This document shows, piece by piece, positions 420 to 60,645 of a stretch of 61,141 nucleotides of DNA (the stretch's first letter is position 1; the number at the start of each line of letters is the position of its first letter). Both the position numbers and the translations under genes were made by a program. The stretch covers positions 1-61,141 of the IMG/VR virus record IMGVR_UViG_3300028920_000076, one strand, 5' to 3'. The notes under the pieces are model-generated. The model was not told the origin of the DNA, ran no database searches, and was given only the letters and a program-made list of their open reading frames with translations. This stretch comes from a virus (Duplodnaviria > Caudoviricetes).

Positions 420-433
420 TGAAATCGATTGCA
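420..433. repeat. Dispersed 14-bp palindrome, 1-mismatch copy (TGAAATCGATTGCA)
   Basis: Read directly; just downstream of the promoter, an operator-like position. Confidence 0.7.
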
Positions 434-482
434 ATTTGGGGAGTTGAAAGATGGGTGAATTTCGGGAAGGGGCGAAACGGGC

Positions 483-842
483 ATGAGGATGTGGATGGTT
501 GATCCTGTTCTGTTATGCAAGAAGCATCTGGGTGGGGAGCACTACGAGATGCACAAGCACCTGTGGGTGTTCCGTAAGGGATACAAGGTGTCGGGACGAT
601 TCCACCCCACGGTCCAGATTCAATTTCAGGGATACGTCGAGAGGCATGATCTGCTTGCCCGTGAGATAGAGAGGCGGGGAGGGAAACACAACAGTCCACT
701 CGTTGATGTTCCTGACTTCGAGACGATATACCCGCAATATTGGAACCGGCTGGTCGATGTGGAACTGAGCAAGATCGATCTGTGCGAACGTTGCCCAGAC
801 TGCCGGGAAAGGATTAGGGCTGCTGAAAGATGGGTGAATTGA
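483..842 (+). CDS. Pyrimidine-dimer DNA glycosylase / T4 endonuclease V-like protein
   Basis: N-terminus MRMWMVDPVLLCKKHLGGEHYEMH and RHDLLAREIERRGGKHNSPL resemble the DenV/Pyr_excise family. Confidence 0.75.
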   Translation: MRMWMVDPVLLCKKHLGGEHYEMHKHLWVFRKGYKVSGRFHPTVQIQFQGYVERHDLLAREIERRGGKHNSPLVDVPDFETIYPQYWNRLVDVELSKIDLCERCPDCRERIRAAERWVN

Positions 843-1024
843 CCAAAAAAGAGATTATGGATATTATCAGATCGGCGTACCGATTGAGGCCCAGAGATAT
901 TGCGGCTTTCGAGTTGTATGCGAAAGGTGTGACCGAGGTACAGGTTGCTGGAATTGATGGTCCTTTATGGATGCGGGTGGAGGTTGCGAACCGGCTCAGG
1001 GATCTTTACAGAAAGGAATTGTGA
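830..1024 (+). CDS. hypothetical protein
   Basis: ORF tightly packed in the early operon. Confidence 0.55.
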   Translation: MGELTKKEIMDIIRSAYRLRPRDIAAFELYAKGVTEVQVAGIDGPLWMRVEVANRLRDLYRKEL

Positions 1025-1025
1025 T

Positions 1026-1265
1026 ATGGTAGATTATCAGTGGACGGAAGACGTGATGGAACAGTTGGGTTTGGGGATCGATCGTGCCCTTCGTGAGACC
1101 GTGGGGAAGATGGGCTTTGTGCTGTTGGTGTTTCCTCCCGGCAAGCCCGGTGTTTCTAATTATTTGAGTAACTGCGAAAGAGATATGATGATTTTAGCTC
1201 TGGAGGAAACGGTTGACAGGTTGAAAAAGAAGGCGGATATTCCGAGACCGATAGGGGAAGCCTGA
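1026..1265 (+). CDS. hypothetical protein
   Basis: ATG 1026 right after the upstream stop, AAGGA RBS. Confidence 0.6.
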   Translation: MVDYQWTEDVMEQLGLGIDRALRETVGKMGFVLLVFPPGKPGVSNYLSNCERDMMILALEETVDRLKKKADIPRPIGEA

Positions 1266-1302
1266 TCGGGTAACGTTTAGACGAGCAAGGAGGTAATTTA
1301 CT

Positions 1303-1671
1303 ATGGCTGAACAAGCAGAGGTTGTGAGTTTAGGTGCCCACAAACGTAAGAAGGAAAAGAAGGAAAAGAAAGAGGAACTTGTAATCGTTGACTTTCTTGA
1401 GTTTGACGCTTATAGAGCAACGGTGCAGAGACTTGTGAGTACTCTGCGGATGCGGAACCGTTACCCGAAGGGTGCTTACGATACCAGTACCTTTTATATA
1501 GGACGGAGGGTGATGCGGATAAGCTTCCGACAGCTCTATGTATCACAGTTTCAGATGCAAAAGTTGCTGAGGCTCTTGAAATCGGAGTTCTCAGATGTGG
1601 CTTACAAGTATTACGTAGAAGGGACCGATCTGCACATCTACCTGCGTGGTGAGCGAAGGAAGGATGAGTAA
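1303..1671 (+). CDS. hypothetical protein
   Basis: AGGAGG RBS; packed ORF. Confidence 0.7.
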   Translation: MAEQAEVVSLGAHKRKKEKKEKKEELVIVDFLEFDAYRATVQRLVSTLRMRNRYPKGAYDTSTFYIGRRVMRISFRQLYVSQFQMQKLLRLLKSEFSDVAYKYYVEGTDLHIYLRGERRKDE

Positions 1672-1976
1672 TGCTGATTGTAGTTAATTTGAAGAACTGT
1701 GGAGGTTGTCGGCATAGGGATCATTCGGGCTCTTTCACGCCGGGTGGTCCCAAACAGATATGCGCCCATCCTGAAGTTTCGGATGTGGTGTATAATACTG
1801 TACCTGATATGCTGTGTGACGATGCGAACGGTTTTCCATCAAAGCCTACGGGGAAGGAGCTGGAACGATTGGAGAAGCAATGCTACCACTGGAAAAATCG
1901 TATTGTGGATGAGTATGTGGATACCGACGATAAGTTTCCGATCTTTTGCCCGTTGAGGAATGGGAGTTTATACTAA
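1671..1976 (+). CDS. Cys-rich hypothetical protein
   Basis: TAATG overlap; CxxC...C...FCPL pattern. Confidence 0.65.
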   Translation: MLIVVNLKNCGGCRHRDHSGSFTPGGPKQICAHPEVSDVVYNTVPDMLCDDANGFPSKPTGKELERLEKQCYHWKNRIVDEYVDTDDKFPIFCPLRNGSLY

Positions 1977-2278
1977 TGAAGCTGTTAGTGATTATCATTA
2001 TGCTGTCGAAGTTGTCTACTCTCGCCACGATTGACGGTAAACCCACGTGGATCGATTGTCCCGAATGGGATTGGTCATTGGTGCCGGTGGAGTGTAGAGT
2101 TCCTGCGTTTAACTGTGTGCCGATCTGTGGTAAGTGGCCGGGAGATAAGGTGGATATCGGAGCCTATGAATACGTGCCGAATATTACGAGCGAGCAGCCG
2201 TGGGGAGCTTGGAAGGGAATACCTTTTAAATCCGCCCCCGGAGAAGTCACTGCTCCAGAGGGTTTTAGACGGAGGTAG
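1976..2278 (+). CDS. small exported protein with DIGAYEY motif
   Basis: TAATG overlap; hydrophobic N-terminus MKLLVIIIML; DIGAYEY. Confidence 0.6.
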   Translation: MKLLVIIIMLSKLSTLATIDGKPTWIDCPEWDWSLVPVECRVPAFNCVPICGKWPGDKVDIGAYEYVPNITSEQPWGAWKGIPFKSAPGEVTAPEGFRRR

Positions 2279-2281
2279 GCA

Positions 2282-2590
2282 ATGAGAAAATGTCCGGTTT
2301 GCAGTAGCCTGATGGATCAGAGTGTGGACGACTATCCGAGTGGTGCTTGGGAGTGCTCTGTCTGTGGTTGTATCGAAAGGAACGACGAGGCTGAGGACTT
2401 TGATCCGGGTGATGAGCTTACAGAAGAAGAAGGGATCAAAGCAATCGTTAAACTTCAAGCTGTTGGAGGTATCGAGGAGAGCGAGGAAAGAGCGAGAATA
2501 GGATGGTCTCGGATGGGTGAGGCGGATAGAGCACAGACAATGGCAATGTATCGTTTGGTGATGGGATTTGAGGATATGGAGAAGTCATGA
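2282..2590 (+). CDS. Zn-ribbon hypothetical protein
   Basis: CPVC...CSVC; GGAGG RBS. Confidence 0.65.
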   Translation: MRKCPVCSSLMDQSVDDYPSGAWECSVCGCIERNDEAEDFDPGDELTEEEGIKAIVKLQAVGGIEESEERARIGWSRMGEADRAQTMAMYRLVMGFEDMEKS

Positions 2591-2856
2591 AACTCGCAAT
2601 AATATTCGAGGCGAAAGAACTGGAAGCCTTACAACCGGGTGTAGTTGTGGAGTCTTGGCGGAGAGTCATGTCTACCGGTACGGGAAAGCGGAAGCTTGCG
2701 GCTGCGTTTACGGCGGATGAGATCGAGAAGGTCAAGAAAGTCTATAAACTTTACTGCTGGTGGTACGGCAAGATGATGCCGAGTGAACACCGCTGCACGA
2801 TTGCCGAGTATGAGTTCATGCAGCGAGTAACCTACTTCTTTGGAACGTACGAATAG
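2587..2856 (+). CDS. hypothetical protein
   Basis: ATGA overlap. Confidence 0.6.
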   Translation: MKLAIIFEAKELEALQPGVVVESWRRVMSTGTGKRKLAAAFTADEIEKVKKVYKLYCWWYGKMMPSEHRCTIAEYEFMQRVTYFFGTYE

Positions 2857-2861
2857 GAGGC

Positions 2862-3080
2862 TTGATGGATAAGGACGCAAGAATCAAGGAACTGGAGCGA
2901 AGGAATGAGGAACTTGAAACGTGCCTGGCCTGGGTCCGAGATTTTATTGATACGTTGGAGTATAAAGGAGCCTTTACTATGGCGGTGACTCGGGAGGAGC
3001 GACGAGAGTTGTTCTCCCAATTATTAGATAGAGTAGTAAAGGCGGTGGGATACCGAGAGGTAGGTCAGGGCGATGAGTGA
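2862..3080 (+). CDS. hypothetical protein
   Basis: AGGAGG RBS; start may be 2865. Confidence 0.6.
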   Translation: MMDKDARIKELERRNEELETCLAWVRDFIDTLEYKGAFTMAVTREERRELFSQLLDRVVKAVGYREVGQGDE

Positions 3081-3387
3081 TTGTAAGAATTTGACGTTTC
3101 CTATTATAAAAGAAGCCATGATCGCTGCTTCTATTGAAAAACACGATAAGTATATGGAATTGATGGATAAAGTGACCGAATATGTGAAATCTCGTGGGCC
3201 TTGTGAATGGAGTCGATTGCCAACGCTCAGGGAGATCGGTAAAAAATTTAAAATTACGATAGGTCAGGCTGAATGGATCGTTGAGGATTGTGAGCAACTG
3301 GAGCTTATCGTTGGGATTAGAGCGGGAGGATCAATCTGTGAGTTTACCAGACAAGGTGACCAAAGAGCTGAATACGTCGAGGAGTGA
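3073..3387 (+). CDS. hypothetical protein, possible HTH-like segment
   Basis: Packed ORF; LPTLREIGKKFKITIGQAEWIV. Confidence 0.55.
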   Translation: MSDCKNLTFPIIKEAMIAASIEKHDKYMELMDKVTEYVKSRGPCEWSRLPTLREIGKKFKITIGQAEWIVEDCEQLELIVGIRAGGSICEFTRQGDQRAEYVEE

Positions 3388-3631
3388 TAACCCACTGTAT
3401 TTATTGGACTTTTGTGATTGGTGGGCCGAGAGTATGGATGCCGGGAGTATTGAACATTGCATTATGTTACTGGGCCAAAAGTTGTATGAAAACGAAAAGT
3501 TACTTGACGAGCTTGGAAAACTTCGATATACCGGTATTGAGAATGACCGTGCTGCACTCGAAGGTGATGTAGAAAGGCTCACTGCGGTAATTGGAAAATT
3601 GACAGCACGGAGAACAGAGCTAACTGGCTAA
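3281..3631 (+). CDS. hypothetical coiled-coil protein (true start probably further downstream)
   Basis: Fills the gap to the next RBS; helical C-terminal half. Confidence 0.45.
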   Translation: MRIVSNWSLSLGLEREDQSVSLPDKVTKELNTSRSDNPLYLLDFCDWWAESMDAGSIEHCIMLLGQKLYENEKLLDELGKLRYTGIENDRAALEGDVERLTAVIGKLTARRTELTG

Positions 3632-3847: not shown

Positions 3848-4409
3848 TAAGATCGCATGGCACTACACGTATGAATACAAGGCTACACCTATTTTAACGG
3901 ACGGACATCTGAGGCTTACTCCAGTAGAACCGTTGCCGGGAGAGCCTCAAGGTGTTTGGTTTTCAAAGAATCCTGTCTGGGAGGAGACCGTCCGCAAGAA
4001 GACCGTTATTGTGGATAAGGTAACTGGCGAATCTGTACTCTCGACCGAGCCGCTTGCTCGTGATGAATTTTATGAAGCGACCGGATTCCGGGCCATAAGA
4101 TTTGCAATCGATTGCAGACGTTTCCCTAACCAGCTTTGCGGGTGGAACAACTATCGCAAGAAACTTTTTAAGGTTGGTCATGCCGCCCATGCCAAGGCTC
4201 TTGCGGATACTGCTAAATTATGGAAGGCAGACCCGAAGGATTGGCTTGTCATTTACCGGGAAGTTACTCTATTCGAGCTGCTGAATGAGGTTGAGATCTG
4301 GGATCATGTAGGGGACCGTGGATGGATTCCAGCCGGATTGAAGGTAAATGAGGAGACACGTAAGGTAACCGTTGCTCCTTTAATTGAGATGGGAGGGATA
4401 GCTACGTGA
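3840..4409 (+). CDS. hypothetical protein, possible ADP-ribosyltransferase-like fold
   Basis: WHYT...ILTDGHL...GVWFS pattern; GGAGG RBS. Confidence 0.5.
   Translation: MPDKIAWHYTYEYKATPILTDGHLRLTPVEPLPGEPQGVWFSKNPVWEETVRKKTVIVDKVTGESVLSTEPLARDEFYEATGFRAIRFAIDCRRFPNQLCGWNNYRKKLFKVGHAAHAKALADTAKLWKADPKDWLVIYREVTLFELLNEVEIWDHVGDRGWIPAGLKVNEETRKVTVAPLIEMGGIAT
4103..4116. repeat. Dispersed 14-bp palindrome (TGCAATCGATTGCA)
   Basis: Exact, inside CDS 3840-4409. Confidence 0.9.
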
Positions 4410-8163: not shown

Positions 8164-8177
8164 TGCAATCGCTTGCA
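8164..8177 (+). repeat. Dispersed 14-bp motif (TGCAATCGCTTGCA)
   Basis: Exact, intergenic, 34 nt before the -35 box. Confidence 0.9.
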
Positions 8178-10682: not shown

Positions 10683-10946
10683 ATGCATAGGTTTTATGCT
10701 ATCCACTATATTAAAGAATACGGGATCGGGTCACCTTCAGGTGATTACGAGTCCGGCATTGGGGAAGTCATTATGATTAGGCTTATTAGGAAACTGGTTG
10801 GATGTAGCATTGGGCTTCTTGGCATATTGCTTGCATGGTCAGACGGGGGCTGGTTCCCATGGGTGAACTATGTAGGGCTTGGTATTTTCGGTATTATGAT
10901 ATACGTTGCCAATAGAAGTGAGGACCGGTGCAATCGCTTGCAATGA
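10683..10946 (+). CDS. small membrane protein (start possibly 10773)
   Basis: Two hydrophobic segments. Confidence 0.5.
   Translation: MHRFYAIHYIKEYGIGSPSGDYESGIGEVIMIRLIRKLVGCSIGLLGILLAWSDGGWFPWVNYVGLGIFGIMIYVANRSEDRCNRLQ
10929..10942 (+). repeat. Dispersed 14-bp motif (TGCAATCGCTTGCA)
   Basis: Exact, 33 nt before the -35 box. Confidence 0.9.
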
Positions 10947-13049: not shown

Positions 13050-13258
13050 AACACTACGTATCTGATTCATATTGGTGCGACCGGGATGAGCAATTTAAGC
13101 ACTCATTAGTCTGTTTGTATAGGTGTACGGATCAGCCGTACTGCTCACATAGTCTAAAATTCGAGTATTCCTTGCGGATTAAGTTGCAATCGATTGCACT
13201 GGCCCGGATCGGAGGGAACGGTCAGCTTCCCGGCATGGAGAGTGATGAGAAGGAGTGA
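13046..13258 (+). CDS. hypothetical protein
   Basis: AGGAGG RBS, GTGA overlap. Confidence 0.5.
   Translation: MKHYVSDSYWCDRDEQFKHSLVCLYRCTDQPYCSHSLKFEYSLRIKLQSIALARIGGNGQLPGMESDEKE
13185..13198. repeat. Dispersed 14-bp palindrome (TGCAATCGATTGCA)
   Basis: Exact. Confidence 0.9.
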
Positions 13259-16694: not shown

Positions 16695-16708
16695 TGCAAT
16701 CGCTTTCA
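16695..16708 (+). repeat. Dispersed 14-bp motif, 1-mismatch copy (TGCAATCGCTTTCA)
   Basis: Immediately after a stop codon, 4 nt before the -35 box. Confidence 0.75.
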
Positions 16709-19461: not shown

Positions 19462-20070
19462 ATGAGGGCTGAAAATATGCAATCGCTTGCAACTGGAAAA
19501 ATGGTAGTTAAGGATGAGAAACAACGAATCGTTTACGGGGAGGTATACTCCCCGTTTCGTCTGGATACAGACGGTGAGACCATGACGCAGGAGGACATCG
19601 GCATCATGGCTCAACGATTCATGGAGGATCACCTCGTTAGTAAGATTGACGTTGAGCATGACGAGGTGGAATCTGGAGCAGAAGTCATCCGATCATTTAT
19701 AGCAATGAAAAATGACCCAGATGGATTTGTCGCCGGATCATGGGTATTAGGAGTGAAAGTACATCCTGACCCGCTGTGGGAAAAAGTTATGAAGGGAGAA
19801 CTTAATGGGTTCTCCTTTTCTGGTTCTGTTGACCGAGTACCTGCCGAAGCCGTTGTTCAAATGGTTGTCAGGGCATACGGCGATACGGAGAAGTCTGAAG
19901 ATGGACCGTTGCCACCGCACATTCATAAATGCGATATTTCATTCGATGGGAATGGTCGAGTGCTGCCGGGGCAATTTACCGATTGGTCTTTGGACCACCA
20001 GCACCCCATAGAGAAAGCGACTGCTACCGGCTCCGAGATCGACCACGGACACCGGTTGGTCCTCATTTGA
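19462..20070 (+). CDS. XkdF-like prohead serine protease
   Basis: RIVYGEVYSP..DTDGE, DVEHD, GSWVLGVKV, KGELNGFS. Confidence 0.8.
   Translation: MRAENMQSLATGKMVVKDEKQRIVYGEVYSPFRLDTDGETMTQEDIGIMAQRFMEDHLVSKIDVEHDEVESGAEVIRSFIAMKNDPDGFVAGSWVLGVKVHPDPLWEKVMKGELNGFSFSGSVDRVPAEAVVQMVVRAYGDTEKSEDGPLPPHIHKCDISFDGNGRVLPGQFTDWSLDHQHPIEKATATGSEIDHGHRLVLI
19478..19491 (+). repeat. Dispersed 14-bp motif (TGCAATCGCTTGCA)
   Basis: Exact; encodes MQSLA. Confidence 0.9.
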
Positions 20071-21228: not shown

Positions 21229-21242
21229 TGCAATCGCTTGCA
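21229..21242 (+). repeat. Dispersed 14-bp motif (TGCAATCGCTTGCA)
   Basis: Exact, intergenic before the MCP. Confidence 0.9.
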
Positions 21243-25393: not shown

Positions 25394-25431
25394 AAAGGGG
25401 CCGGATGCAATCGCTTGCACGGCCCCTTTTT
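25394..25431 (+). terminator. Terminator hairpin containing the 14-bp motif
   Basis: AAAGGGGCCG-GA-TGCAATCGCTTGCA-CGGCCCCTTTTT. Confidence 0.75.
25406..25419 (+). repeat. Dispersed 14-bp motif (TGCAATCGCTTGCA)
   Basis: Exact. Confidence 0.9.
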
Positions 25432-26165: not shown

Positions 26166-29100
26166 CGTACTGACGAAAACAATTCGAGTTATTATCAAGG
26201 CGATTGACCAGACCGGGGGAATAGTCAAGTCAGTTGCCGGTGGTCTTGGCAAACTCGGCGATCAGGCTAAGAAGACAGGTAAAGATCAGGACGGTCTCAG
26301 AAAAGGCACGGAGAAGGCCACTGATGCTGTCCGAAAGCAGGGAGCCCAAGTCAAGAAGGGAGCAGGTGCCTTACGTCTTTTCGGATCGTCTTCCCAGAAG
26401 GCCCGGAGAGAAGTCACTGCTATGGGTACTGCTGCCAAGTCTGCCGGTGCCGGTATCGGAAGTCTTATCTCCAAGTTTACCACTGCCGCTGCGACTATAG
26501 GCACTATTGCTTTCCCGATTGCCAAGGCTGCTCAGTTCGAGAGGGCCATGGCAACTGTCGGTGCTGTATCGGGTGCCACCGGAAAAGACCTTGATTCGTT
26601 GACCATGAAAGCACGGGAGATGGGCGAGAAGACTGAGTTCTCTGCCACCCAAGCTGCGGACGGTCTCCGATTCTTGGCGATGGCCGGTCTTAATGTAGAA
26701 CAACAACTCGCCGCTCTCGAACCCGCCCTGAACCTTGCCCTTGCCGGTAATATCGAACTTGGACAAGCTGCTGATATAGCCACCAACATCATGACAGGTT
26801 TCGGTGCTTCAGTTTCCGAACTTCCCGGCATGATGGACGTACTGACCCAAGCCTTCACGAACAGTAATACAAACCTCACCGAACTCGGCCATGCAATGGC
26901 CTACGTTGCCCCTGTCGCTGCCGGGATGGGTGTAGAGTTCAACGACCTTGTATCTGCAATGTCAGCCCTTGCCAATGCTGGCCTGAAGGGGTCGATTGCT
27001 GGAACGGCTCTCAGAGGTACACTTGTTAAGCTATTCAAGCCGACCGCCAAATCTGAGAAGGTCATGCAATCGCTTGCACAACGTATCGGACAGACCAACA
27101 TTGAACTGCGAAATGCGGAAGGTGGATTCATTGGGTTTGCCGGACTTATTGACCAGTTTGCAGCCGCCAACGTTTCGGCTGCTGAGGCCATGGAGATATT
27201 TGGTCTACGTGCTGGACCCGCTTTCATTGCCTTGTTGAACCAAGGGTCTGCGGAGATGCGGAGATTCAACAAGTTGATGGATGAAGCTGGAGGTAGAACC
27301 GCTGAGATTGCAAAGGTTATGGGGAATAACTTTGTCGGTGCTACGAAACAGCTCCTATCCTCGTTGCAGGAACTCGCCATTAACTTTGGGTCTGCTTTTC
27401 TTGGTGATCTGAAGGAAGCTACTCTGTCGATACGAGATTTGGTTATCAGTATCAACACGTGGGTCAGTGCGAACAAGACGCTTGTTAAAAATGTCGGATA
27501 TGCTGTCGCTGCACTCGGAGCACTCTCGGCTGCGGCTGGACTTCTGGCAGTTTTCAAGACTCTTGCCGTTGTTGCATTGGGTCCATTTACTAGTGCTCTC
27601 AATTTGATCAAAGCTAAGGGTCTTGTTGCCGTTGCTGCCCTCGCTACCATCGCTGCTACGTGGGGAGAACTAATTTATGAGATGGTGAAGTCCAACGGAG
27701 ATCTTGAGAAATCCGTTGAGAACTGGGACTTTGCCAAGTGGCTCAATAACCTGACGTTGCCTTTCATCGAATCAAAGAAAACCATTGGTGACTTCGCCAC
27801 CTATGCAATCGCCTTCTGGGATAAGTTTTTCTCGAAGATCGGATATGGGTGGGCGTTGATCCCTGTGGCTATGAAATCTGCGTTTTCTGATGGGTTGGAT
27901 CTCATAGCAAATTTTGCACAAAATATCCTTAATACCATGAAGGAAGTTCCCGGCCTCGGACAGTTGTTAGGATGGAGCGGGGATGTAGACAGAATCCAGC
28001 AGTCTATCGATGGTATTCGAGCTGCGGCACAACGGCTGAATACCGAAGCACAGAACGGATACCGTGCTGCGAACAAAGCTTATCAACAGCAAATCAAATA
28101 TGCCAATGATACCCAAGCCGGTATCGAGCGGACTGCTGCGGCCAGAGAACGGGAAGCACAGCTTATTGATTACATGGGAAGGCGAGAATCAGCGGTTGCC
28201 CAACTCCGTGCCAATGCTCAGTCTGAGATTCGGGAAGCAACAAAGAGTGTTCGGGAGGAGATCGAGAAACAAAACAGAGTCCTCAAGGGTCTCTATGAAC
28301 GTGTCGGACAGGCATCTGAGAGATACAAGATATTTGTCGATCAAGCAAAATCTGCGCTCGAATCGCTTGGAAAAGCTACGAATAAGGCGCTTTCGAGTAT
28401 CTGGGAAAACGTTACCAATGATCAGGCTGTGGCTGATGTCGAGAGACAACTTCAGCAAATCCAAAGGCAATACGAAACGTACTCGGACCAAGGTGCTGCT
28501 GCCATAAGACGAGCAGAGAGTTCTATCTCAAAGGCCAGAATTGAGGCAACCAGAAATGGTGTTGATGAGTCACTCGCCCTTATTGAAGCCCAGAGGACTC
28601 GTGAGATTGCACTGCTTAACGAGACCAAAGAGAAAGAGGTTGCGGTTGCCAAGGCTACGATAAGTGATGTTGCCACGCAGAGGAAGCGTCTGGAGCAGAT
28701 CGAAAAGGATAGTCAGAGAAATATCGTTGCTGTTAATGAGAAAACTCTGGCCCAGAAGAAAGCGTTGTACGAGAAGGCTACCACGGCACTCAAGTCCGAA
28801 TTGGATAAATCGCTATCTGCCGAGCGTTCCATTGCCGATGAGATTATCGCTGTTCAAGACAAGATCCGAAATTCTAAAAAGTCCACCGAGGAGCTTGTTC
28901 GTGGACTGAGAAGGCAGGGATTGTCAGAGGAGAGAGCGTATGCTGACGAAGTTGCGGAAGTAGATGAGAAGATCGCTGCTGCGACTAAGTTGATGGCGAC
29001 CGACACGAAGAAGTCTATCCAACTGTTGCAAGAAGCCCAGAGACAAGCCTCTGGACTTGTGGGTGAAATTTCCAGTGGCGAGAAGATACTCGTCTCTGAA

Positions 29101-37107: not shown

Positions 37108-37121
37108 TGCAATCGCTTGCA
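37108..37121 (+). repeat. Dispersed 14-bp motif (TGCAATCGCTTGCA)
   Basis: Exact, immediately after TAA. Confidence 0.9.
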
Positions 37122-40905: not shown

Positions 40906-40919
40906 TGCAATCGATTGCA
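40906..40919. repeat. Dispersed 14-bp palindrome (TGCAATCGATTGCA)
   Basis: Exact, between a stop codon and the next RBS. Confidence 0.9.
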
Positions 40920-42854: not shown

Positions 42855-43382
42855 ATGGAAAAAGAAGAAGTGAAACTCGAAAAGGGTGATTTCTTTTGCA
42901 GTAAGAATCCCATGGCTCTCGGCAAAATCATTAATGCTGTCCAGTGGTTCTGGTCAACTGATAACGAGTCGAGATATACGCATGCCGGGATTATTGTTGC
43001 CGAGGACGGTACTACACTGGAGTCTTTGTGGACCGTCAAGAATCAAAATCTCTGGGAAGCTTATGCCGGTGAGAGAGTTATCATTGGACGTTACGAAAAG
43101 ATGACCCCTGAGATTTTTGAGAAGGGGATGCAAGCGATTGCAGAACATAAGGGTAAGATTTATCCAGTTCTTCGGCTACTACTATTTGGCATACCACCCG
43201 TTGCCAAATTTCTATATATAGGACTCGTGGTGTGTTCCGAGTTGACTGCCAAGTTTTTGTGCTCGATGGGAGCACTTAACTATTGGAAAGGCAAGATGCC
43301 CGACAATATCCATGACGCTATGAAATATCGTCGAGGGTTCAAAGTCGTGGCAGAACTTGAAATCCCTAAAAAGGAGGTTTAA
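42855..43382 (+). CDS. permuted papain-like (YiiX/YebB, NlpC/P60) protein
   Basis: YTHAGII...ES precedes VCSEL, the permuted His-before-Cys order. Confidence 0.7.
   Translation: MEKEEVKLEKGDFFCSKNPMALGKIINAVQWFWSTDNESRYTHAGIIVAEDGTTLESLWTVKNQNLWEAYAGERVIIGRYEKMTPEIFEKGMQAIAEHKGKIYPVLRLLLFGIPPVAKFLYIGLVVCSELTAKFLCSMGALNYWKGKMPDNIHDAMKYRRGFKVVAELEIPKKEV
43129..43142 (-). repeat. Dispersed 14-bp motif, reverse orientation
   Basis: Exact TGCAAGCGATTGCA (MQAIA). Confidence 0.9.
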
Positions 43383-47693: not shown

Positions 47694-49147
47694 TGCAAAA
47701 GTTTTTGAAGAACGTTACCACTGGACGCCTCCGAGTTGGAGATGTTGGTAAGAAAATCGATGCCGGTGAAGTACGCCGGATTGACGGCAAGGACATTCAT
47801 CGCTGGCTGAACAGTGACGACACACTTGACTACATACGTGCTGGTGATCTGCAAGTCGGTGCTGCGATTGATTTCTTTTACTCCGATGCGCTGGAGGGAG
47901 AGCTTTATTTCAATTCGCTGTTTGACGATGATGCATACGTGCTGGATGGAAGTACACTGGAGGAGGTCACTCCTGCCGTTGTTACAGACAGTATTACCGG
48001 GAAGAAGTCAACCACTGAGTTCTTTGCTATTCAATCCATGATGCGTGAACTCTACAACGCTACGTCCAATCCGTTTTATCATGCCAGTGTCACCCCGATT
48101 CTGGGTGCCGGGGGAATCCTCGAAACCATGGCAGGTAGAACGTTAAATCTGGAGACCATCTTGGGTAAGACCGGATGGTACACACAGGAAGTAAAAGAGT
48201 GGGCATACCAGAAACCGTATGCCATCCTGTTTTACTACGGCTGGCCCAACGCCTTCAACTCCGCTCAGAATGGGTGGGATAATGAGAAGGTTGCTCAGGA
48301 AATGTCCAAGTACCGGATTGTCGTTTTTGGGAATGGGCTGGAGCTTCCTACTCATGGAGACCACGCCAATCTGCAAGCGATTGCAACGAGGATTAAGGCC
48401 CTCAACTCAAACACGCAAATATTCGGGTATGCCTCTGTAAACCAGACGCAGACTGCGTTCGAGACACAGGTGGACAACTGGAAGGACAACATCGGTGTCC
48501 ACGGCATCTTCATGGATGAGGCCGGATACGATTACGGCAAGACCAGACAGGAGTTCAATACTGCGGTGGATTACGTCCACGACGAAGGCTTGATCTGCTT
48601 CGCAAACGCATGGAATATGAACCATGTTCTGGGAACCGCCAACGATCCAAGCTACCCGAACACCACATATAACCCGTCTGCGGACGAGTCGAATCTGGCA
48701 CAGACTGATTGGTATCTGATGGAGTCCCTTGCCGTCAATACCCTTGTCTACTCTGGAGACGGAGTTGCCCCGAAAGCGGACTTTGTGGCTCGTGTGAATA
48801 CCATGACCACGCTCCGTGCGACCTACGGGATCAACGTTGCTGCTATCAACGTGATTAACGACTCACACGCACAGGGACAGGCACTTTTCGACTTCGCCTT
48901 TATCGCTGCCTGTATTGCATCTCTGGAGGGAGTGGGATCGTCAGACGATTACTACGGGGCCTCCAGTGCGAAGACGAAGTTCTGGGACCGACCGGATGTC
49001 AGTGAGATCGGGAGGCTCTGGGACTTGTGGCCCATGCTATCAGCAGACAACAATGATGCGGACAAGGTGCTTCGCTTTCTCGACTTTGGACGCCTGATGC
49101 TGGACTTCTCCACAGGAGCGGTTGATAGTGACATTCTGAAATACTAA
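47693..49147 (+). CDS. virion-associated glycoside hydrolase-like protein (Spherulin-4/GH135 or GH114-like TIM barrel)
   Basis: TQIFGY, GVHGIFMDEAGYDYG, YLMES; shared N-domain. Confidence 0.6.
   Translation: MQKFLKNVTTGRLRVGDVGKKIDAGEVRRIDGKDIHRWLNSDDTLDYIRAGDLQVGAAIDFFYSDALEGELYFNSLFDDDAYVLDGSTLEEVTPAVVTDSITGKKSTTEFFAIQSMMRELYNATSNPFYHASVTPILGAGGILETMAGRTLNLETILGKTGWYTQEVKEWAYQKPYAILFYYGWPNAFNSAQNGWDNEKVAQEMSKYRIVVFGNGLELPTHGDHANLQAIATRIKALNSNTQIFGYASVNQTQTAFETQVDNWKDNIGVHGIFMDEAGYDYGKTRQEFNTAVDYVHDEGLICFANAWNMNHVLGTANDPSYPNTTYNPSADESNLAQTDWYLMESLAVNTLVYSGDGVAPKADFVARVNTMTTLRATYGINVAAINVINDSHAQGQALFDFAFIAACIASLEGVGSSDDYYGASSAKTKFWDRPDVSEIGRLWDLWPMLSADNNDADKVLRFLDFGRLMLDFSTGAVDSDILKY
48372..48385 (-). 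repeat. Dispersed 14-bp motif, reverse orientation
   Basis: Exact TGCAAGCGATTGCA (LQAIA). Confidence 0.9.
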
Positions 49148-50715: not shown

Positions 50716-50729
50716 TGCAATCGCTTGCA
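50716..50729 (+). repeat. Dispersed 14-bp motif (TGCAATCGCTTGCA)
   Basis: Exact, between a stop codon and the next RBS. Confidence 0.9.
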
Positions 50730-52562: not shown

Positions 52563-55154
52563 ATGGGAGCATGCCAATTAGATTCCTGTCCGCTGCACAA
52601 CCAGCCACGGAATCGGGAAGTTCCCTATCAAGGCTCTACACGTGCTAAGGTTATACTTGTCGGAGAGTCTCCCGGCTTTCAAGAGCTGCGGATGGGGTTA
52701 CCTTTCTGTTCGGACGGAGACTCTGGCAAACTACTTCGTAAGGGATGCAGCACTGTTGGGCTGCCGTGGTCTTCTTTGTTTCTCTGCAATGCTGCTCGTT
52801 GCCGGATTAATACAAAAAAGATGACCATCAAGGAGATCAGTAAAACTCTGGCCCACTGCCGTAGGCATCTTGAACGAGTGATAAAGGCTCTGAAGCCTAA
52901 AATCATAGTGAACCTTGGCAACTACGCACTGCAACAAGTGCAAAAAAGAAAGGGAATAACGAAAGCCCGTGGCAGGTGGACGTGGAACAAAGAGTTTAAC
53001 TGTTGGGTTTACTCCATGTTTCATCCTGCGTACATCTTACGGAACATGGCACTTGAACCACTGTTCGTTGAAGACTTAAAAGGGTTGAAAGACGCAATAG
53101 ACAATGACTACTCGCCGGAGTTCGATGAGGAGTTAGATTGGAAGGAAATCCCCCGATTGAAAGGGGCTTTTACGTTACCCCAACTGCATGAAGGTGTAGG
53201 CATCGATACCGAATGTCAGGGTCTTGAGTGGACGGACGAGGACTATGTTGTAATCGGTTATTCGATAAGCGCCCAGAAAGGTAAAGGCTACTTCGTCCGA
53301 CTGTACGAGGAGACAGTTGATCCCGATGAAGCAGACTTTACTATTCAATGGATGCGTGCTCCAGAGGGCAAGAAAAAGAAAGAGCTTGTGGATGTCCATG
53401 TCCGCAAGGCTCCGCTATTCGATGAGAAATTGAGAGAATTGCGGATCGTGCTGGAGAGCAAGGATATCAAGCTTTACATGCACAACGGCAACTTTGATCT
53501 GCATACTCTCAATACGTTTTTTCGTAATGCTGGAAAGGCTCCACCGACCGTACGATCTTATGCGATGGATACCCAAGCAGCGGCTCAACTACTGGAGGAA
53601 AATATATTTGTCCAATGTAAGTTGTCGCAGCTCCAGCGTACCTACACGAGCATTAAAAGTGATTATGATGAGGCTCTTGCGAGGAAGTATGGAAAGGATG
53701 ATATGCTTGCCGTGCCAGCAGAGGAGTTGGGATACTACGCTGGCGGTGATGCCGATGTGACAAGACGTGTTGCCCTGCGGCTGAAAGAGGAGCTTCTCAA
53801 AGAGCCTGACCTCGCTCGTTACCTTGTAAAATTTGTTATGCCGACTTTGCAATCGCTTGCAACAATGGAGGAAAACGGTGCATACGTCGATCAAGAGCAA
53901 CTGCCGATTGCTACGGAATCAATCAAGGGATTGATGGAACAAGCAACTCGTGACTGCCTTCGTTACATCCCGGTGAAGGTCAGAGCACGTCATAAAGAAT
54001 TAGGACTGAAATTCACTCGTGATGCACTCGTTAGGGATACACTGTTTGCCAATGATGGCTACAGTTTGAAAATCGTCAGGAAAACGAAAAGTGGAACTCC
54101 ATCAGTTGACAAAGACGTACGGAAAATGCTTCTGGAGAGACGGCTGACAAAAAAGTGCCGAGCTTTCCTAACGTATCTGGATGACTTCAAAAGATACCAT
54201 ACGCTCTACACTCGTTATCTGAAGGGATTTAAGAAGTCGATCAAAAGCGATCAGCTTATTCATACCAAGTATTCATTATGTAAGGCAAAGACAGGAAGGG
54301 CTGCTTCGTCAGATCCCAACCTAATGAATATACCGAATCGTGGACCGGATGCGCCTGTCGTACGGAAGTTGATTGCTGCTCCGAAGGGATGGCTTCTGAT
54401 GGCTGCGGATGAAGGCCAATCCGAACTCAGGTGGGCTGCGGATATCGCTAATGACAGAGCGATGAAAGAAGTCTTCCAGCAAGGCAAGGATATTCATACT
54501 GCAACCGCTGTTGCCCTTAGCCAGAGGACTGAAGCTGTCTATTTGAAGTTGCCGGAAAAGGAGCAGAAAACACTCCGTAGAAATGCGAAGCCTGTGAACT
54601 TTGGTCTGCTATACGGGATGGGTGCTGATGGATTCGTCTTGTATGCTAAGTTGGAATACGGGATTGACTTAACGATCCCCGAAGCAGAGCTGTGGATCAG
54701 TATCTTTTTCCGTACTTATAAAGCTTTGCCTGTATACCATAAGAAGACCATAGCTTTTGGCCGACGACATGGATATGTAGTCTCCCCGATTGGTCGGAGA
54801 CGGCATCTTCCAGAGATCAGTAGCAGTGATCCCTTTCTGCGATCACAAGCCGAGAGGATGGCGATCAATCACCCGATTCAATCAGTCTCGTCGGATACCG
54901 TACTGATTGCTAATAATGAGATCGAGGCGCAAGACCATAACCCAGAGGAGTTTAAATCATCGCTGTTCATCCACGATGAGCTTGTCTATCTGGTTCGTGA
55001 CAATTCAAAAGTTGAGGACTATGGAAGGGTACTCAAGGAAGCCATGGAAAATCCTCCGTTCGAGAGGGACTATGGGTATAAACTTTCAGTTCCTTTGATA
55101 TCCGATGTGAAAGTCGGAAAAAACCTCGTTGAGATGACTAAGTTGGAATTATAG
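52563..55154 (+). CDS. polA: Family A DNA polymerase with N-terminal family-4 uracil-DNA glycosylase domain and 3-prime-5-prime exonuclease
   Basis: UDG: C..C, GESPG, NAARCR, HCRRHL, FHPAYILRN. Exo: IDTE, HNGNFDL, YAGGDA. Pol: TGR, DEGQSELR, KPVNFGLLYG, IHDEL. Confidence 0.9.
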   Translation: MGACQLDSCPLHNQPRNREVPYQGSTRAKVILVGESPGFQELRMGLPFCSDGDSGKLLRKGCSTVGLPWSSLFLCNAARCRINTKKMTIKEISKTLAHCRRHLERVIKALKPKIIVNLGNYALQQVQKRKGITKARGRWTWNKEFNCWVYSMFHPAYILRNMALEPLFVEDLKGLKDAIDNDYSPEFDEELDWKEIPRLKGAFTLPQLHEGVGIDTECQGLEWTDEDYVVIGYSISAQKGKGYFVRLYEETVDPDEADFTIQWMRAPEGKKKKELVDVHVRKAPLFDEKLRELRIVLESKDIKLYMHNGNFDLHTLNTFFRNAGKAPPTVRSYAMDTQAAAQLLEENIFVQCKLSQLQRTYTSIKSDYDEALARKYGKDDMLAVPAEELGYYAGGDADVTRRVALRLKEELLKEPDLARYLVKFVMPTLQSLATMEENGAYVDQEQLPIATESIKGLMEQATRDCLRYIPVKVRARHKELGLKFTRDALVRDTLFANDGYSLKIVRKTKSGTPSVDKDVRKMLLERRLTKKCRAFLTYLDDFKRYHTLYTRYLKGFKKSIKSDQLIHTKYSLCKAKTGRAASSDPNLMNIPNRGPDAPVVRKLIAAPKGWLLMAADEGQSELRWAADIANDRAMKEVFQQGKDIHTATAVALSQRTEAVYLKLPEKEQKTLRRNAKPVNFGLLYGMGADGFVLYAKLEYGIDLTIPEAELWISIFFRTYKALPVYHKKTIAFGRRHGYVVSPIGRRRHLPEISSSDPFLRSQAERMAINHPIQSVSSDTVLIANNEIEAQDHNPEEFKSSLFIHDELVYLVRDNSKVEDYGRVLKEAMENPPFERDYGYKLSVPLISDVKVGKNLVEMTKLEL
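53848..53861 (+). repeat. Dispersed 14-bp motif (TGCAATCGCTTGCA)
   Basis: Exact, in polA (LQSLA). Confidence 0.9.
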
Positions 55155-56883: not shown

Positions 56884-58435
56884 GATGCCAGATATACAGG
56901 CTCCAGAGGAGCTTGACAGCTTCGATACGGCCTTTTTAGTGCTGATAGGGACTCTGACCCTTATAGACGGAGAAGAAGCCCTTGAATCGGCTCTGAAGGT
57001 CTCAAAAGATGTTGTTTTGTGGGGTCCAGAAGCCTTCCTACTCAATTCAGTGCTGTATAAGGGTTGGAAGGATGCTGGTGGCGATGATTTTACCGATGCG
57101 TTGAGATCTGCGTTTGATCTTAAAGACGATATCGGTGTTGATCTGGAAGCCCTCGACGATGCGTATGAGAAGTACTATGCCACTGGACGAAAGGCATGGA
57201 AGATCGTCAAAAAGAAAGTTGCTGAGGTACTGGAAAAGACTTCGGACTCATCCGAGAGTTATTTTCTCAAGCAATACAAAAAGGCCCAAAAGGATGCAGC
57301 TCTCGATAACTGGAAAAAGTTTGTGGAGTCTGCCAGTTATGAACACATAGAAAAATTTATCGACACGTACCCGGATCGTGTGCTGCACAGCCAGATTGGT
57401 ACTCTTGCCAAGCAAGCAGCACTGAATCCGAATATGCGTACTATTGACAAAGCTGATTTGGTGCGTAGGATTAAAGAGATCGAGAAGTTGCCGAAAGAGT
57501 ATATCAAAAACGTTTCGGATATACATGCCGGGAGAGTTTGGAATTTTACCGGATTGACGATGGCTCGTCAGAGAAACGTTACCGAATTTCAGATTATAGC
57601 AAACTTGGATAAGAAGACGTGTCCGGTGTGCAAGCGATTGCACGGGACTCGCTTTAATGTCGAGGCTGTGATCGAAAAAATGATCCCGTTGTTGACGGAG
57701 GAGGGTAACGAGGACGCTATTGCTAAGGCGTTTCCCTTCCCCCGGTTGCCTGATGTAGATAACGTCTCCTCAGCGGAGAAACGGGGTCTCCAAACAATGC
57801 CTCCTTTTCATGGGCGGTGCCGGTGTGATACGGCAATGTTATGGACGAAGACGGACACGGAGCTTCCAGAGTTACCGAAGAAGCCACCGACTATTCCAGA
57901 AACGTTTGTCTCTAAGAGGAACCGTCTTGAGAGGAGCATCTACAACCGTAAGACTGAAAAGTGTTACTGTTTTGATAAAAAGGGAAATGTGACCGTTGTT
58001 AAAGAAGGTCACGAGCGAGGAATACTTTTTACTTCTGATGAGTTAAATGCAATGCCGGAAGGCTCTGTCTTTACGCATAACCATCCGGCTTCTACAAGTT
58101 TTAGTCCTGAAGATCTATTTCTGACTATCAGAAATAGGTTTAAGGAGATGAGGGCAGTCAGCAAGAAATACGTATACTCCTTTAAGCCTGATTGGAAGTA
58201 CTGGACAGAGACCATCGGGTATACCGAAACGCAAGATATTGCAGACTCGTTTCTCACTGCGTTTCAGAAAGCTGATGGTGCTGTCCGTAAGAAAATTCAA
58301 TCGTTGCTTAACAGTGGAAAAATTGCACTCGAAACAGCCAATGCTACTCATGCACACGAAGTCATGCTGGAGATGTCCAAAATGACAAAAGGTCAAGGAT
58401 TCAAGTATTCACGGAGGAAACCGCCATGGTCTTAA
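56870..58435 (+). CDS. MuF/gp7-like head morphogenesis protein with C-terminal JAB/MPN-like domain
   Basis: DKKTCPVCKRLHG...PPFHGRCRC (MuF); TE...FTHNHPASTSFSPEDL (JAB-like). Confidence 0.8.
   Translation: MLPYKMPDIQAPEELDSFDTAFLVLIGTLTLIDGEEALESALKVSKDVVLWGPEAFLLNSVLYKGWKDAGGDDFTDALRSAFDLKDDIGVDLEALDDAYEKYYATGRKAWKIVKKKVAEVLEKTSDSSESYFLKQYKKAQKDAALDNWKKFVESASYEHIEKFIDTYPDRVLHSQIGTLAKQAALNPNMRTIDKADLVRRIKEIEKLPKEYIKNVSDIHAGRVWNFTGLTMARQRNVTEFQIIANLDKKTCPVCKRLHGTRFNVEAVIEKMIPLLTEEGNEDAIAKAFPFPRLPDVDNVSSAEKRGLQTMPPFHGRCRCDTAMLWTKTDTELPELPKKPPTIPETFVSKRNRLERSIYNRKTEKCYCFDKKGNVTVVKEGHERGILFTSDELNAMPEGSVFTHNHPASTSFSPEDLFLTIRNRFKEMRAVSKKYVYSFKPDWKYWTETIGYTETQDIADSFLTAFQKADGAVRKKIQSLLNSGKIALETANATHAHEVMLEMSKMTKGQGFKYSRRKPPWS
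57629..57642 (-). repeat. Dispersed 14-bp motif, reverse orientation
   Basis: Exact TGCAAGCGATTGCA, encoding CKRLH of the MuF Cys motif. Confidence 0.9.
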
Positions 58436-59102: not shown

Positions 59103-59288
59103 ATGGCTGAGAATGAGTTTACGAATGAGGCAAACGACCCGATCCGCAAGCCACCGGCAAGCGGAGTGATGACCAGCGAGCTTCCACAGGAACGGGAAAT
59201 ACGTGAGACTCCGTTGCCTGAAGGGTATACACCGGGAGGCTTGATGAGTGGGGAAAACGATCTCGACAGAGACTTTCCCGTCAAATAG
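59103..59288 (+). CDS. small acidic hypothetical protein
   Basis: AGGAGGT RBS. Confidence 0.6.
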   Translation: MAENEFTNEANDPIRKPPASGVMTSELPQEREIRETPLPEGYTPGGLMSGENDLDRDFPVK

Positions 59289-59320
59289 CTTTTATCGGTT
59301 GTCAATCAGGGTTCTGGAGC

Positions 59321-59369
59321 CTTCGGGGGTTACGGTTAAAAGGTGCGCTGTAACCCTCGAACTCTTTTT
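59321..59369 (+). terminator. probable terminator
   Basis: TTCGGGGGTTAC...GTAACCCTCGAA stem then CTCTTTTT. Confidence 0.55.
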
Positions 59370-59407
59370 ACTCAAAGAGTAATAAAATCAGGCATTTATA
59401 AAAACTC

Positions 59408-59436
59408 TTGACAAAATTTTTTATCTGTTATATATA
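59408..59436 (+). promoter_or_regulatory. sigma70-type promoter
   Basis: CTTGACAAAA; TTGACA-N17-TATATA in AT-rich context. Confidence 0.7.
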
Positions 59437-59473
59437 AAATTATCGATATTATTTTTTGACAGGAGACGCCGCC

Positions 59474-59989
59474 ATGCATAAATTCAAATTTACGGGAGGG
59501 GTTGCCAATCCTGAACCGAGACGAAATGAGAAGTTTCTCTTGTTTTTCGTTGTCGGCGGAAACGAGATCCCTCTGTATCAGATGGTCAACGATGGATTGG
59601 TACAGAGGACCGGCTACGAGCGGGATGAGTTCTCGACCAAGCACAAGATTGCCAAGGTGTTTATCAGTCAGCAGGGATTCGGCATCCAGAAACGCTACCA
59701 CTCCTTTTATATAGAGTTTCGGGATTCTACCGCATCCCCCACGGTGACTGTAGTTCCCTTCTCCGGGCCAGATACCCAATTTCAATTCGTTGGGAATTTT
59801 CGTTTCCTGAAAAAAGATGAAATCTTGGAAGTGCTGGATAGTGAATCAACAAGTTACAAGTTCGCCCAGATCCAGCAACCACTTCCGGTTAAGACGCTGA
59901 ATAGTCTTGTTACTGTGGATCGTTCTCATGTTCGCAAGGGAGTGCGGCATGTTCGGATCGGACGCAAAACCCAAAAGGTAGGAATTTGA
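59474..59989 (+). CDS. hypothetical protein with C-terminal RHVRIGR motif
   Basis: AGGAG RBS. Confidence 0.65.
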   Translation: MHKFKFTGGVANPEPRRNEKFLLFFVVGGNEIPLYQMVNDGLVQRTGYERDEFSTKHKIAKVFISQQGFGIQKRYHSFYIEFRDSTASPTVTVVPFSGPDTQFQFVGNFRFLKKDEILEVLDSESTSYKFAQIQQPLPVKTLNSLVTVDRSHVRKGVRHVRIGRKTQKVGI

Positions 59990-60011
59990 CCTACAGACAG
60001 GAGGTATCACT

Positions 60012-60407
60012 ATGTCATTTTGGACCCAGATCGGAACCGTGATCACTGACGTTACAATGTTCAAGAAGTCGTGTGAACAGCATAATGTCGAGTATCAGCG
60101 GAACCACGACAAGAACTTTAAGATGCAAGGGCTCGAAGTCCATGCAACGTTGACTGACAGTGGCTCACGGAGCGGCATGCGTGGGCAAGCTTTTCTCTGC
60201 AAGGATGGAGGAGCGTTCAAGATCGTTATGGACAATGACATCAACTACTCGTCTTTCTCAAATCGCATCGGACGTAACGGTGGGGTGCTTGTTAGAGACT
60301 ACACCAGAGGTGTGATTCTGGACAACGTGAGAAAAACTGGTGGGATGGTAACCAAACAAGAAGAACTGAAGGATGGCAGTGTTCTATTAAGAGTTGCCAA
60401 CTTCTAA
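60012..60407 (+). CDS. DUF1257 (Ycf35)-like protein
   Basis: MSFWTQIGTVITD...; C-terminal EELKDGSVLL; adjacent to a DUF2997-like gene. Confidence 0.6.
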   Translation: MSFWTQIGTVITDVTMFKKSCEQHNVEYQRNHDKNFKMQGLEVHATLTDSGSRSGMRGQAFLCKDGGAFKIVMDNDINYSSFSNRIGRNGGVLVRDYTRGVILDNVRKTGGMVTKQEELKDGSVLLRVANF

Positions 60408-60427
60408 TCTGTATGAGGAGTGACAAA

Positions 60428-60631
60428 ATGACGGAGAAACCCGAAGTAGTTATCAAAATCAGTCCAGATGGATCTAATGTGGACGTAGACGGTAAGAACT
60501 TTACGGGCGGGGCTTGTAAGACAGTTATCGAGACTCTAACCAAGGGTGTCGGGATTGTCGAGGAGTCAAAGAAGAAGCCCGAATTTTACGTAATCGAGCA
60601 GCATCATACCACTCTCGGTGGTAGTACGTGA
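60428..60631 (+). CDS. DUF2997-like protein
   Basis: VVIKISPDG.V.VDG.NF.G..C......L....G......KKPEFY. Confidence 0.7.
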   Translation: MTEKPEVVIKISPDGSNVDVDGKNFTGGACKTVIETLTKGVGIVEESKKKPEFYVIEQHHTTLGGST

Positions 60632-60645
60632 TGCAATCGCTTGCA
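60632..60645 (+). repeat. Dispersed 14-bp motif (TGCAATCGCTTGCA)
   Basis: Exact, immediately after TGA, followed by a hairpin at 60648-60676. Confidence 0.9.

Follow-up and report, generated by a model that had tools for sequence, protein, structure and literature searches.

Arrays of one short DNA-binding site dispersed along a whole replicon have been described in several systems. KorB, a global repressor and partition protein of the ParB family, has 12 OB operators on the ~60-kb plasmid RK2, about one per 5 kb, and ParB, Noc and KorB bind palindromes of 13–16 bp. Mycobacteriophage L5 and cluster A phages carry stoperators, asymmetric sites oriented with transcription that are bound by the repressor gp71 and co-evolve with it, and uptake signal sequences and DNA uptake sequences (USS/DUS) exemplify a selected motif with over-dispersed, even spacing. 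We have analysed the virus record IMGVR_UViG_3300028920_000076 (the window; an entire IMG/VR record of 61,141 bases), which contains a lattice of 18 exact, evenly spaced copies of a 14-bp dyad of the shape TGCAA-N4-TTGCA. We predict that these 14-mers are binding sites of a phage-encoded homodimeric helix-turn-helix protein, here called cl29, and serve for genome-wide control, a reading to which we give a rough probability of 0.4. CheckV estimates the completeness of the record at 54%, so that 'genome-wide' applied to the window means the whole contig and not the whole genome.

With KorB on RK2 the lattice would share the dispersed short palindromes and a single element-encoded dimer acting on the whole replicon, but the element here is a phage, cl29 has neither the ParB N-terminal domain nor a sequence link to ParB, and the lattice sites also lie within genes and are regularly spaced. 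As with stoperators, a phage genome bears tens of 13–14 bp sites over its length, most of them in the short spaces between genes; unlike stoperators, the dyads are mixed in orientation, regular and present inside long genes, and a Cro/CI-type HTH_3 domain exceeded the cut-off in only one of 19 records (G016). The Noc binding sites and the parS sites of ParB, which are read by a ParB-type helix-turn-helix, are comparable as palindromes of 14–16 bp scattered on a replicon, and the sites described here are palindromic in the same way (14-bp dyads, extended to 18–20 bp in the relative G012), whereas the fold match of cl29 to those proteins is weak (E above 1) and cl29 lacks the CTP-binding domain. 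T7-group promoters likewise consist of many copies of one long motif co-evolving with a phage-encoded reader; in contrast to them, the lattice dyads are mixed in orientation and keep no fixed distance to gene starts, which argues that they are not promoters. With USS/DUS the lattice has the even spacing in common, but nothing ties it to DNA uptake. The original prediction had likened the array to stoperators and proposed a role beyond single operons, a suggestion that we judge reasonable; its option of a protein acting over the whole genome is supported in kind.

A search of both strands with TGCAATCGMTTGCA gave 21 matches, which correspond to 18 distinct sites since three perfect palindromes are counted twice, and the pattern form TGCAATCG[C/A]TTGCA is likewise found at 18 places in the window. 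Eleven of the exact sites are in forward orientation, four are reverse complements and three are perfect palindromes; together with two copies that carry one mismatch, all of them lie where the original prediction had placed them (Table 1). Dinucleotide-preserving shuffles of the window (n=100) contained a mean of 0.00 copies with a maximum of 0, so that no copy is expected by chance. Gaps between the 20 sites average 3169 bp, with a minimum of 1659, a maximum of 5243 and a coefficient of variation (CV) of 0.29, a value below that of all 20,000 random placements; with only the 18 exact sites the CV rises to 0.37, which none of 20,000 placements matched. The even spacing claimed earlier is borne out, as are the independence of the sites from gene modules and the resemblance of the sites to targets of a dimeric DNA-binding protein. 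Pfam and PHROGs scans of 67 of the ~87 window open reading frames (ORFs) detected no regulator, in line with the earlier view that the reader is not encoded in the window.

The lattice is a family trait and not a quirk of one contig. Related phages were gathered from dyad-bearing contigs in an exact-motif scan of IMG/VR and from a capsid-protein search, and the comparison set comprised 16 records fetched whole (72–106 kb, GC content 0.37–0.65), labelled with G numbers. All 16 carry their own repeated dyad of 14–20 bp with the shape TGCAA-N4-TTGCA, in 5 to 46 sites each. Thirteen of them have 11–46 sites, and in 12 of these 13 the spacing is more regular than random (P <0.0002 to 0.047); examples, given as sites and CV, are G006 (34, 0.45), G012 (23, 0.50), G016 (39, 0.52), G014 (34, 0.55), G022 (26, 0.45), G017 (28, 0.57), G010 (30, 0.62) and G013 (20, 0.52), all with P<=0.003. 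The remaining one, G018, has 46 sites on a loose site call, and their spacing is indistinguishable from random (CV 0.97, P=0.53). G015, G021 and G020 hold 5–7 copies each, so that every genome, the low-copy ones included, has at least a weak lattice. The ~5 copies in G020 (L293-L297) read TGAACACGAGTTCA; a 15-bp tandem repeat of the same genome (~20012-20205) was considered as a set of iterons and rejected, since the end of an ORF adjoins it and a repeat within coding sequence is the likelier interpretation.

The sequence of the dyad differs from lineage to lineage. Arm variants include TGCAC, CGCAA, TACAA and TGAAA, and the central four bases are lineage-specific, with GCGC, ACGT, TCGA, TCAA (G009, G014, G016 and Stenotrophomonas phage DLP5), TTAA (G013, G017 and G018) and TTTA (G010) among them. 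A CG, TA or CA step is almost always present in the centre, and such a pyrimidine-purine step hints at a kink or at indirect readout. Perfect palindromes of 14–20 bp predominate in some genomes (20 of 22 sites in G012, 17 of 20 in G007 and 21 of 26 in G022); in G012, a 100% complete genome whose ends match, a perfect palindrome of 18–20 bp recurs in 20 identical copies. G006 and G008 share the 14-mer of the window despite near-zero DNA identity: comparison of the window with G006, G008, G007 and G010 gave only one to three aligned pieces per record, 65–70% identical and confined to the capsid (21.3–22.2 kb) and portal (55.3–56.7 kb) genes.

Four cultured phages also possess the lattice. Vibrio phage SIO-2 has 12 sites in 81 kb, against 0 for a reversed control pattern, DLP5 has 10 exact copies of TGCAATCAATTGCA in 40.5 kb, and Aeromonas phage HJ05 and Rhodobacter phage RcZahn have it at lower counts. 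The proposed lattice family includes phages of Vibrio, Aeromonas, Stenotrophomonas and Rhodobacter, and probably of Rhizobium. A megablast search against cultured phages gave no match for 12 kb of the window or for 20 kb of G012, and the contig itself was found in four public runs, marine-sediment metagenomes that are all DNA and stored as contigs, with no RNA run among them. In the searchable literature the motif strings retrieved only unrelated papers, with paper supplements outside the search, and queries on evenly spaced palindromes, nicks, ParB-like proteins with terminase and LexA motifs returned nothing on this feature, which hence appears to be undescribed there.

The sites are selected as DNA. 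According to simple ORF calls of our own, not gene-finder output, 7 of the 18 window sites are intergenic against 6.9% of non-coding sequence (p=1.2e-4), and in G010 the figures are 15 of 20 sites against 9.2% (p=3e-12). Many sites are squeezed in after a stop codon and ahead of the ribosome-binding site that follows, and their distance to the gene start varies; the two orientations of intergenic sites stand at 6:0 in the window, 4:1 in G006, 11:4 in G010, 1:3 in G008 and 2:6 in G017, and SIO-2 has 6:5. Sites inside genes favour the frame read as LQSLA or LQAIA, and the frame used is the least harmful one; the tape-measure gene of the window accommodates three sites ~3 kb apart. When 44 in-gene sites were placed on protein alignments, with G020, G021 and G018 left out of the test, eight pairs from different genomes fell on the same column (within 2); the expected number is 0.75, and none of 2000 simulations gave as many as eight. 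Each of these coincident sites spells the variant of its own genome. At column 359-360 of the superfamily 2 (SF2) helicase, for instance, codons of the form GCA-xxx-xxx-TGC encode ANGC in G007, ASDC in G008 and AHVC in G011. Same-column sites in their own variants indicate that the whole set of sites is rewritten at each change of specificity, which is what co-evolution with a lineage-specific reader predicts.

The candidate for this reader is cl29, a protein of ~320 amino acids without a Pfam family (no precomputed Pfam domain on any of eight homologues). Its gene is present in all 16 genomes other than the window, and also in SIO-2 (VPEG_00074), DLP5, RcZahn (gp66) and HJ05; with tblastn, 46 cultured phage records match cl29, including DLP3 and VHS1. 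It belongs to a module that runs through DnaB, primase, a gp32-like single-stranded DNA-binding protein, SF2 helicase, RecA, a Cas4-like exonuclease and RuvC to an AAA+ ATPase, cl29, in some genomes a protein with a ParB_N domain, and the TerS-like and TerL-like proteins. The AAA+ gene adjoins cl29 in most genomes and lies elsewhere in G016, G017 and G018. In the structural model of cl29, residues 30-160 have a predicted local distance difference test score (pLDDT) above 90 and form a helix (75-86), a turn and a second helix (90-105), with YRKSMY at 90-95. The DNA-binding parts of ParB and Noc are its sole low-rmsd (root-mean-square deviation) fold matches in Foldseek (ParB 7bnr_B, probability 0.92, 115 columns, 3.1 A; Noc 7nfu_A, probability 0.85, 133 columns, 3.7 A). 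Prediction of a cl29 homodimer scored 0.69, compared with 0.39 for the best of three controls, with contact agreement of at least 44% between runs and a partner pLDDT of at least 64; among proteins of known structure, 20 of the 30 that were solved as pairs of one chain attain the homodimer mark, as against 1 of the 23 that were solved as single chains.

The start of the second helix varies together with the arms of the dyad. In TGCAA genomes it reads Y-R-K-A-M-Y (residues 90-95 in G010). Where arm position 3 is C, the third residue of this stretch is Lys or Arg in 14 of 14 genomes, and where it is A, that residue is Thr, Ser, Ile or Pro in 4 of 4 (Fisher p=3.3e-4, uncorrected for relatedness); the mixed-arm genomes G016 and SIO-2, with Asn and Lys at this residue, were kept out of the Fisher table. 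G013 (TACAA), the sole genome with A at arm position 2, is also the sole one without Arg at helix residue 2, and helix residue 1 is changed too in the genomes with CGCAA (G012) and TGCAC (G011). In a tree built from four core proteins (RecA, capsid, scaffold and exonuclease), where G013 and G015 form long branches, the A-type genomes are scattered over no fewer than three positions, with G016 as the sister of the K-type G018 and G022 (R) nested within A-types; this scatter calls for several independent co-changes. Direct readout of G by Arg and of a C:G pair by Lys is commonplace. The window has no cl29 gene, and its reader is predicted from the relatives with an identical motif (G002, G003, G006, G008 and L107), whose cl29 helix is YRKAMY or YRKARY. 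To judge from sequences and models, cl29 is the only candidate that fits, and it would bind the sites as follows.

The cl29 gene would sit in the replication/recombination-to-terminase module and be missing here from a contig that is 54% complete; the other half of the genome is predicted to hold it, with Y-R-K-A-M-Y and beside an AAA+ ATPase gene, together with some 15 further sites. Each monomer would read one TGCAA arm through the first turn of the recognition helix (Y-R-K-A-M-Y), with Arg-2 pairing with G2 and Lys-3 with the C3:G pair. Selection may maintain about one site per 3 kb, with none nearer than ~1.3-1.7 kb and few gaps above 6 kb, placing them between genes when there is room and, in genes too long for that, at codons that tolerate them. 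Bound cl29 would then mark the entire genome, and the array might silence and/or maintain an extrachromosomal prophage in the manner of KorB on RK2, ParB silencing at parS or stoperators, while divergent specificities would define groups of immunity or incompatibility. Of the roles considered for the array, control of an episomal prophage at the level of the whole genome, by silencing and/or maintenance, thus seems the most likely, and this reading is favoured by the frequent switches of specificity and by the episomal relatives. Lysogeny as phagemids is reported for DLP3 and DLP5 (PMC7326821, PMC5834331), and an extrachromosomal prophage for VHS1 (PMC3148565), so that two cultured branches of the cl29 family are represented. 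Homologues of cl29 are found in all three, DLP5 being the one in which the lattice was checked.

Several observations weigh against this proposal. Asymmetric sites are preferred in several lineages (15 of 18 in the window, 11 of 12 in SIO-2 and 30 of 30 in G010), for which a simple homodimer model does not account, and no cl29 residue was found that tracks the four central bases. The Foldseek E-values of the cl29 matches are above 1, hhalign of cl29 against the phage ParB_N family was negative (probability 0.15%), and a profile search of solved structures with cl29 returned nothing. The covariation is based on ~20 genomes and few independent events. The protein also occurs in genomes with 5–7 sites (G020, G021 and G015), so its presence does not set the density of sites. 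A tyrosine integrase is lacking in 16 of 19 records (present in G016, G021 and G022), and the scarcity of integrases and of HTH_3 proteins leaves lysogeny unproven for the phage of the window. Finally, a silencer has no obvious need of three sites within one 7.3-kb gene.

The last point leads to a close second among the readings, namely that cl29 reads the sites during the lytic cycle, although we consider it rather less probable. As a self-mark, the array would recruit or load machinery for handling DNA at regular intervals, with the neighbouring AAA+ ATPase, the ParB_N-domain protein, recombination proteins or terminase as partners, for replication restart, recombination-dependent replication, compaction or packaging. 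The location of cl29 within a conserved replication/recombination/terminase module, beside the AAA+ gene in most genomes, agrees with this, and one site per few kb, even in long genes, suits a process along DNA better than gene control; most records moreover lack an integrase or a CI-type repressor. On the other hand, the AAA+ gene is located elsewhere in G016, G017 and G018, a housekeeping loader would be less expected to switch specificity so often than a system of immunity, incompatibility or packaging, and episomal lysogeny is reported for cultured members.

It is unlikely that another phage protein reads the sites, either the two-domain protein resembling ParB, Noc and KorB that is encoded upstream of the terminase genes or some small unrecognised protein. 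The former could load as a sliding clamp; in Foldseek its model (pLDDT 70) aligns with ParB, Noc and KorB in the CTP-bound form over ~190-210 columns with E about 2e-8, the KorB structures 8qa9 and 8qa8 being among the best fold matches, as a further likeness to RK2, and a profile search also matches ParB and Noc. Pfam ParB_N was detected in 10 of 19 records, and in G012 too by a hidden Markov model of our own, and in G010 and G016 a lattice site lies within the ParB_N gene at the same column. Against it stands the distribution of the protein, which is missing from the complete SIO-2 genome (12 sites) and from G013 (91% complete, 20 sites), where the ORF at that position is unrelated, and was not found in G004, G011, G015 and G018. 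Besides, the helix aligned to the ParB recognition helix is acidic in all members, with no column following the motif, and box II reads GEHRF instead of the canonical GERRxRA. Its absence from SIO-2 and G013, the acidic helix and the lack of a motif-tracking column led us to reject the ParB_N protein as a universal reader.

As regards the G013 ORF in the ParB position, Pfam, hhalign and a protein atlas were uninformative. The site shared by G010 and G016 in the ParB_N gene uses the same codons, at alignment column 248. G017 has two adjacent genes with ParB_N domains, one of them fused to a class-I methyltransferase domain (L273:9646-11839), and two ParB-domain proteins are likewise reported for DLP3. 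In the relatives, a conserved gene between those for SF2 helicase and RecA encodes a MerR-like protein of the winged-helix type whose recognition helix varies strongly. This protein of 163 amino acids was rejected as a reader, being present in the low-density G020, missing from its usual position in G009 and G018, and differing in its recognition helix between G006 and G008 despite their common motif. The TerS-like cluster 33 was likewise discarded, as it is not universal. In a presence/absence profile of 46 gene clusters, none was confined to site-rich genomes.

The dyads might also be targets for site-specific nicking or cutting, comparable to the localised single-strand breaks of T5 or of Pseudomonas phage tf, which a ligase and PolX would repair after injection, and to this we attach little probability. 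The window indeed encodes an ATP-dependent ligase, a PolX-type thumb domain, a GHKL ATPase and a GRF zinc ribbon, and the preference of several lineages for asymmetric sites without strand bias would avoid double-strand cuts; but the ligase is present in only 5 of 17 genomes and PolX in 7 of 17 (clusters 4 and 9), several lineages use perfect palindromes of 14–20 bp, and no nickase was identified.

A still smaller chance is left to operators of a host repressor (LacI, PurR, CcpA-type or other), through which the host would control the phage or the phage would titrate the repressor as a decoy. The original prediction had assigned the motif to LacI/GalR operators such as the CcpA cre, and the window motif does have the outline TG..A.CG.T..CA with a central CG; the homologous lattices do not, many of them having centres such as TCAA, TTAA and TTTA, so the assignment does not hold for the family. 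Neither does a LacI-type protein of phage origin, since PF00356 exceeded the cut-off in 0 of 19 related records while the control was positive in 11 of 14 genomes. The core of the G012 site, CGCAAACGTTTGCG, equals what we take to be the core of the E. coli PurR box, a likeness judged a coincidence of shape because the relatives differ, and the TGAAC-N4-GTTCA of G020 resembles what is presumably the Gram-positive LexA box. Vibrio phage SIO-2, however, uses neither a PurR-like nor a gamma-proteobacterial LexA-like box. TGCAA-like arms are kept by phages of Vibrio, Aeromonas, Stenotrophomonas and Rhodobacter, over GC contents of 0.37–0.65, and the arm bases follow residues of a phage protein. Hence a host reader, and with it the decoy idea put forward earlier, is unlikely. 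In Pfam searches, HU/IHF (PF00216) was found in 0 of 19 records and the LexA DNA-binding domain (PF01726) in 0 of 20.

Lastly, a role as RNA, with the sites acting as small hairpins for termination, processing or a translational regulator, is very unlikely. In its favour, the genes all share one strand, a stop codon and the following ribosome-binding site flank many of the dyads, and one dyad tops a terminator hairpin (25393-25430, -25.6 kcal/mol, z -3.6). Against it, 4 of the 15 asymmetric window sites are reversed, the hairpin in 4 of the 6 contexts tested is no stabler than that of shuffled sequences, Rfam gave no match, and a hairpin would not need a fully palindromic centre.

Table 1. Lattice sites and two reference genes in the window, in order of position.
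Feature	Position	Strand	Context
One-mismatch site TGAAATCGATTGCA	420..433		
Perfect palindrome TGCAATCGATTGCA	4103..4116		Within ORF 3741-4409
Site TGCAATCGCTTGCA	8164..8177	+	Between terminator-like 7997-8033 and promoter-like 8212-8240
Site	10929..10942	+	3' end of ORF 10683-10946, upstream of GHKL ATPase gene
Perfect palindrome	13185..13198		Within small ORF 13046-13258
One-mismatch site TGCAATCGCTTTCA	16695..16708	+	Immediately past stop of ORF 16365-16694
Site	19478..19491	+	Start of XkdF-type protease gene; intergenic by our own ORF call
Intergenic site	21229..21242	+	Junction of scaffold-like and major capsid genes; G012 and G010 have a site at the same junction
Major capsid gene	21292-22218		
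Intergenic site	25406..25419	+	Top of strong terminator hairpin after major tail gene
Site	27065..27078	+	Within tape-measure-like gene (26158-33516, 2452 aa)
Site	29972..29985	-	Within tape-measure-like gene
Site	33353..33366	+	Within tape-measure-like gene
Intergenic site	37108..37121	+	Begins one base past stop of ORF 36124-37107; next start 16 nt on
Perfect palindrome	40906..40919		Between stop (40904) and ribosome-binding site of next gene
Site	43129..43142	-	Within ORF 42855-43382
Site	48372..48385	-	Within ORF 47678-49147
Intergenic site	50716..50729	+	Between stop (50713) and ribosome-binding site of ORF 50741-51145
DNA polymerase A gene	52563-55154		Directly followed by portal gene and MuF-like gene
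Site	53848..53861	+	Within DNA polymerase A gene; reads LQSLA
Site	57629..57642	-	Within MuF-like minor head gene
Site	60632..60645	+	Fills gap from ORF 60413-60631 (DUF2997) to next ORF

The gene content of the window is that of a siphovirus-like phage with all long ORFs on the + strand. Besides the genes in Table 1, it encodes an XkdF-type protease, a major tail protein, a tape-measure-like protein of 2452 residues, the ligase, PolX-type and GHKL proteins mentioned above, a radical-SAM protein and a denV-like glycosylase. A repair-type cluster, unusual in a siphophage and common to only some relatives, is made up of a denV-like pyrimidine-dimer glycosylase, the GHKL (MutL-like) ATPase, the GRF zinc-ribbon protein, the ATP-dependent ligase and the PolX thumb (483-842, 11047-12645, 13575-14510, 14801-16360 and 17479-18060). 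In sequence searches of solved structures the GHKL ATPase gave only a weak MutL-like match (best E 0.19), and the GRF protein, the TerL-like protein and cl29 gave none. The adjacency of DNA polymerase A and portal genes (52563-56883) is odd; the annotation of Vibrio phage SIO-2 shows it as well, and the relatives have it too. Radical-SAM, Stealth-like and Spherulin4-like genes are located at 9812-10669, 41490-42374 and 47678-49147, and relatives have epimerase and glycosyltransferase genes, functions in sugar, cell-surface or DNA modification being possible for this group. The TerL-like gene of G010 (L196:4629-7814) carries an intein with an HNH-type endonuclease (Pfam Intein_splicing, PHROG HNH), and inteins caused the polymerase and TerL clusters to merge in the first clustering. 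A search for tRNA genes found none, and a promoter scan of positions 1-20000 gave 37 hits where 27.9 +/- 6.1 were expected, which is chance level.

Overall, we tentatively propose a family of siphophages of 80-110 kb with a lattice of 5-46 dyads, which may be read by a new helix-turn-helix family resembling only the DNA-binding half of ParB and may set the state of the whole genome instead of regulating single operons; site and recognition helix would change together and give rise to many specificity groups. If this is true, a viral genome would carry the same protein-DNA code at intervals of ~3 kb throughout, even in its coding regions, and the code would have been rewritten many times together with its reader. 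The recognition code would be testable, with two helix residues matched to two bases, and the motif would offer a simple marker for family members in metagenomes. The lattice could represent a possible new mechanism for the whole-genome control or maintenance of episomal prophages, and it may explain the grouping of these phages by immunity or incompatibility.

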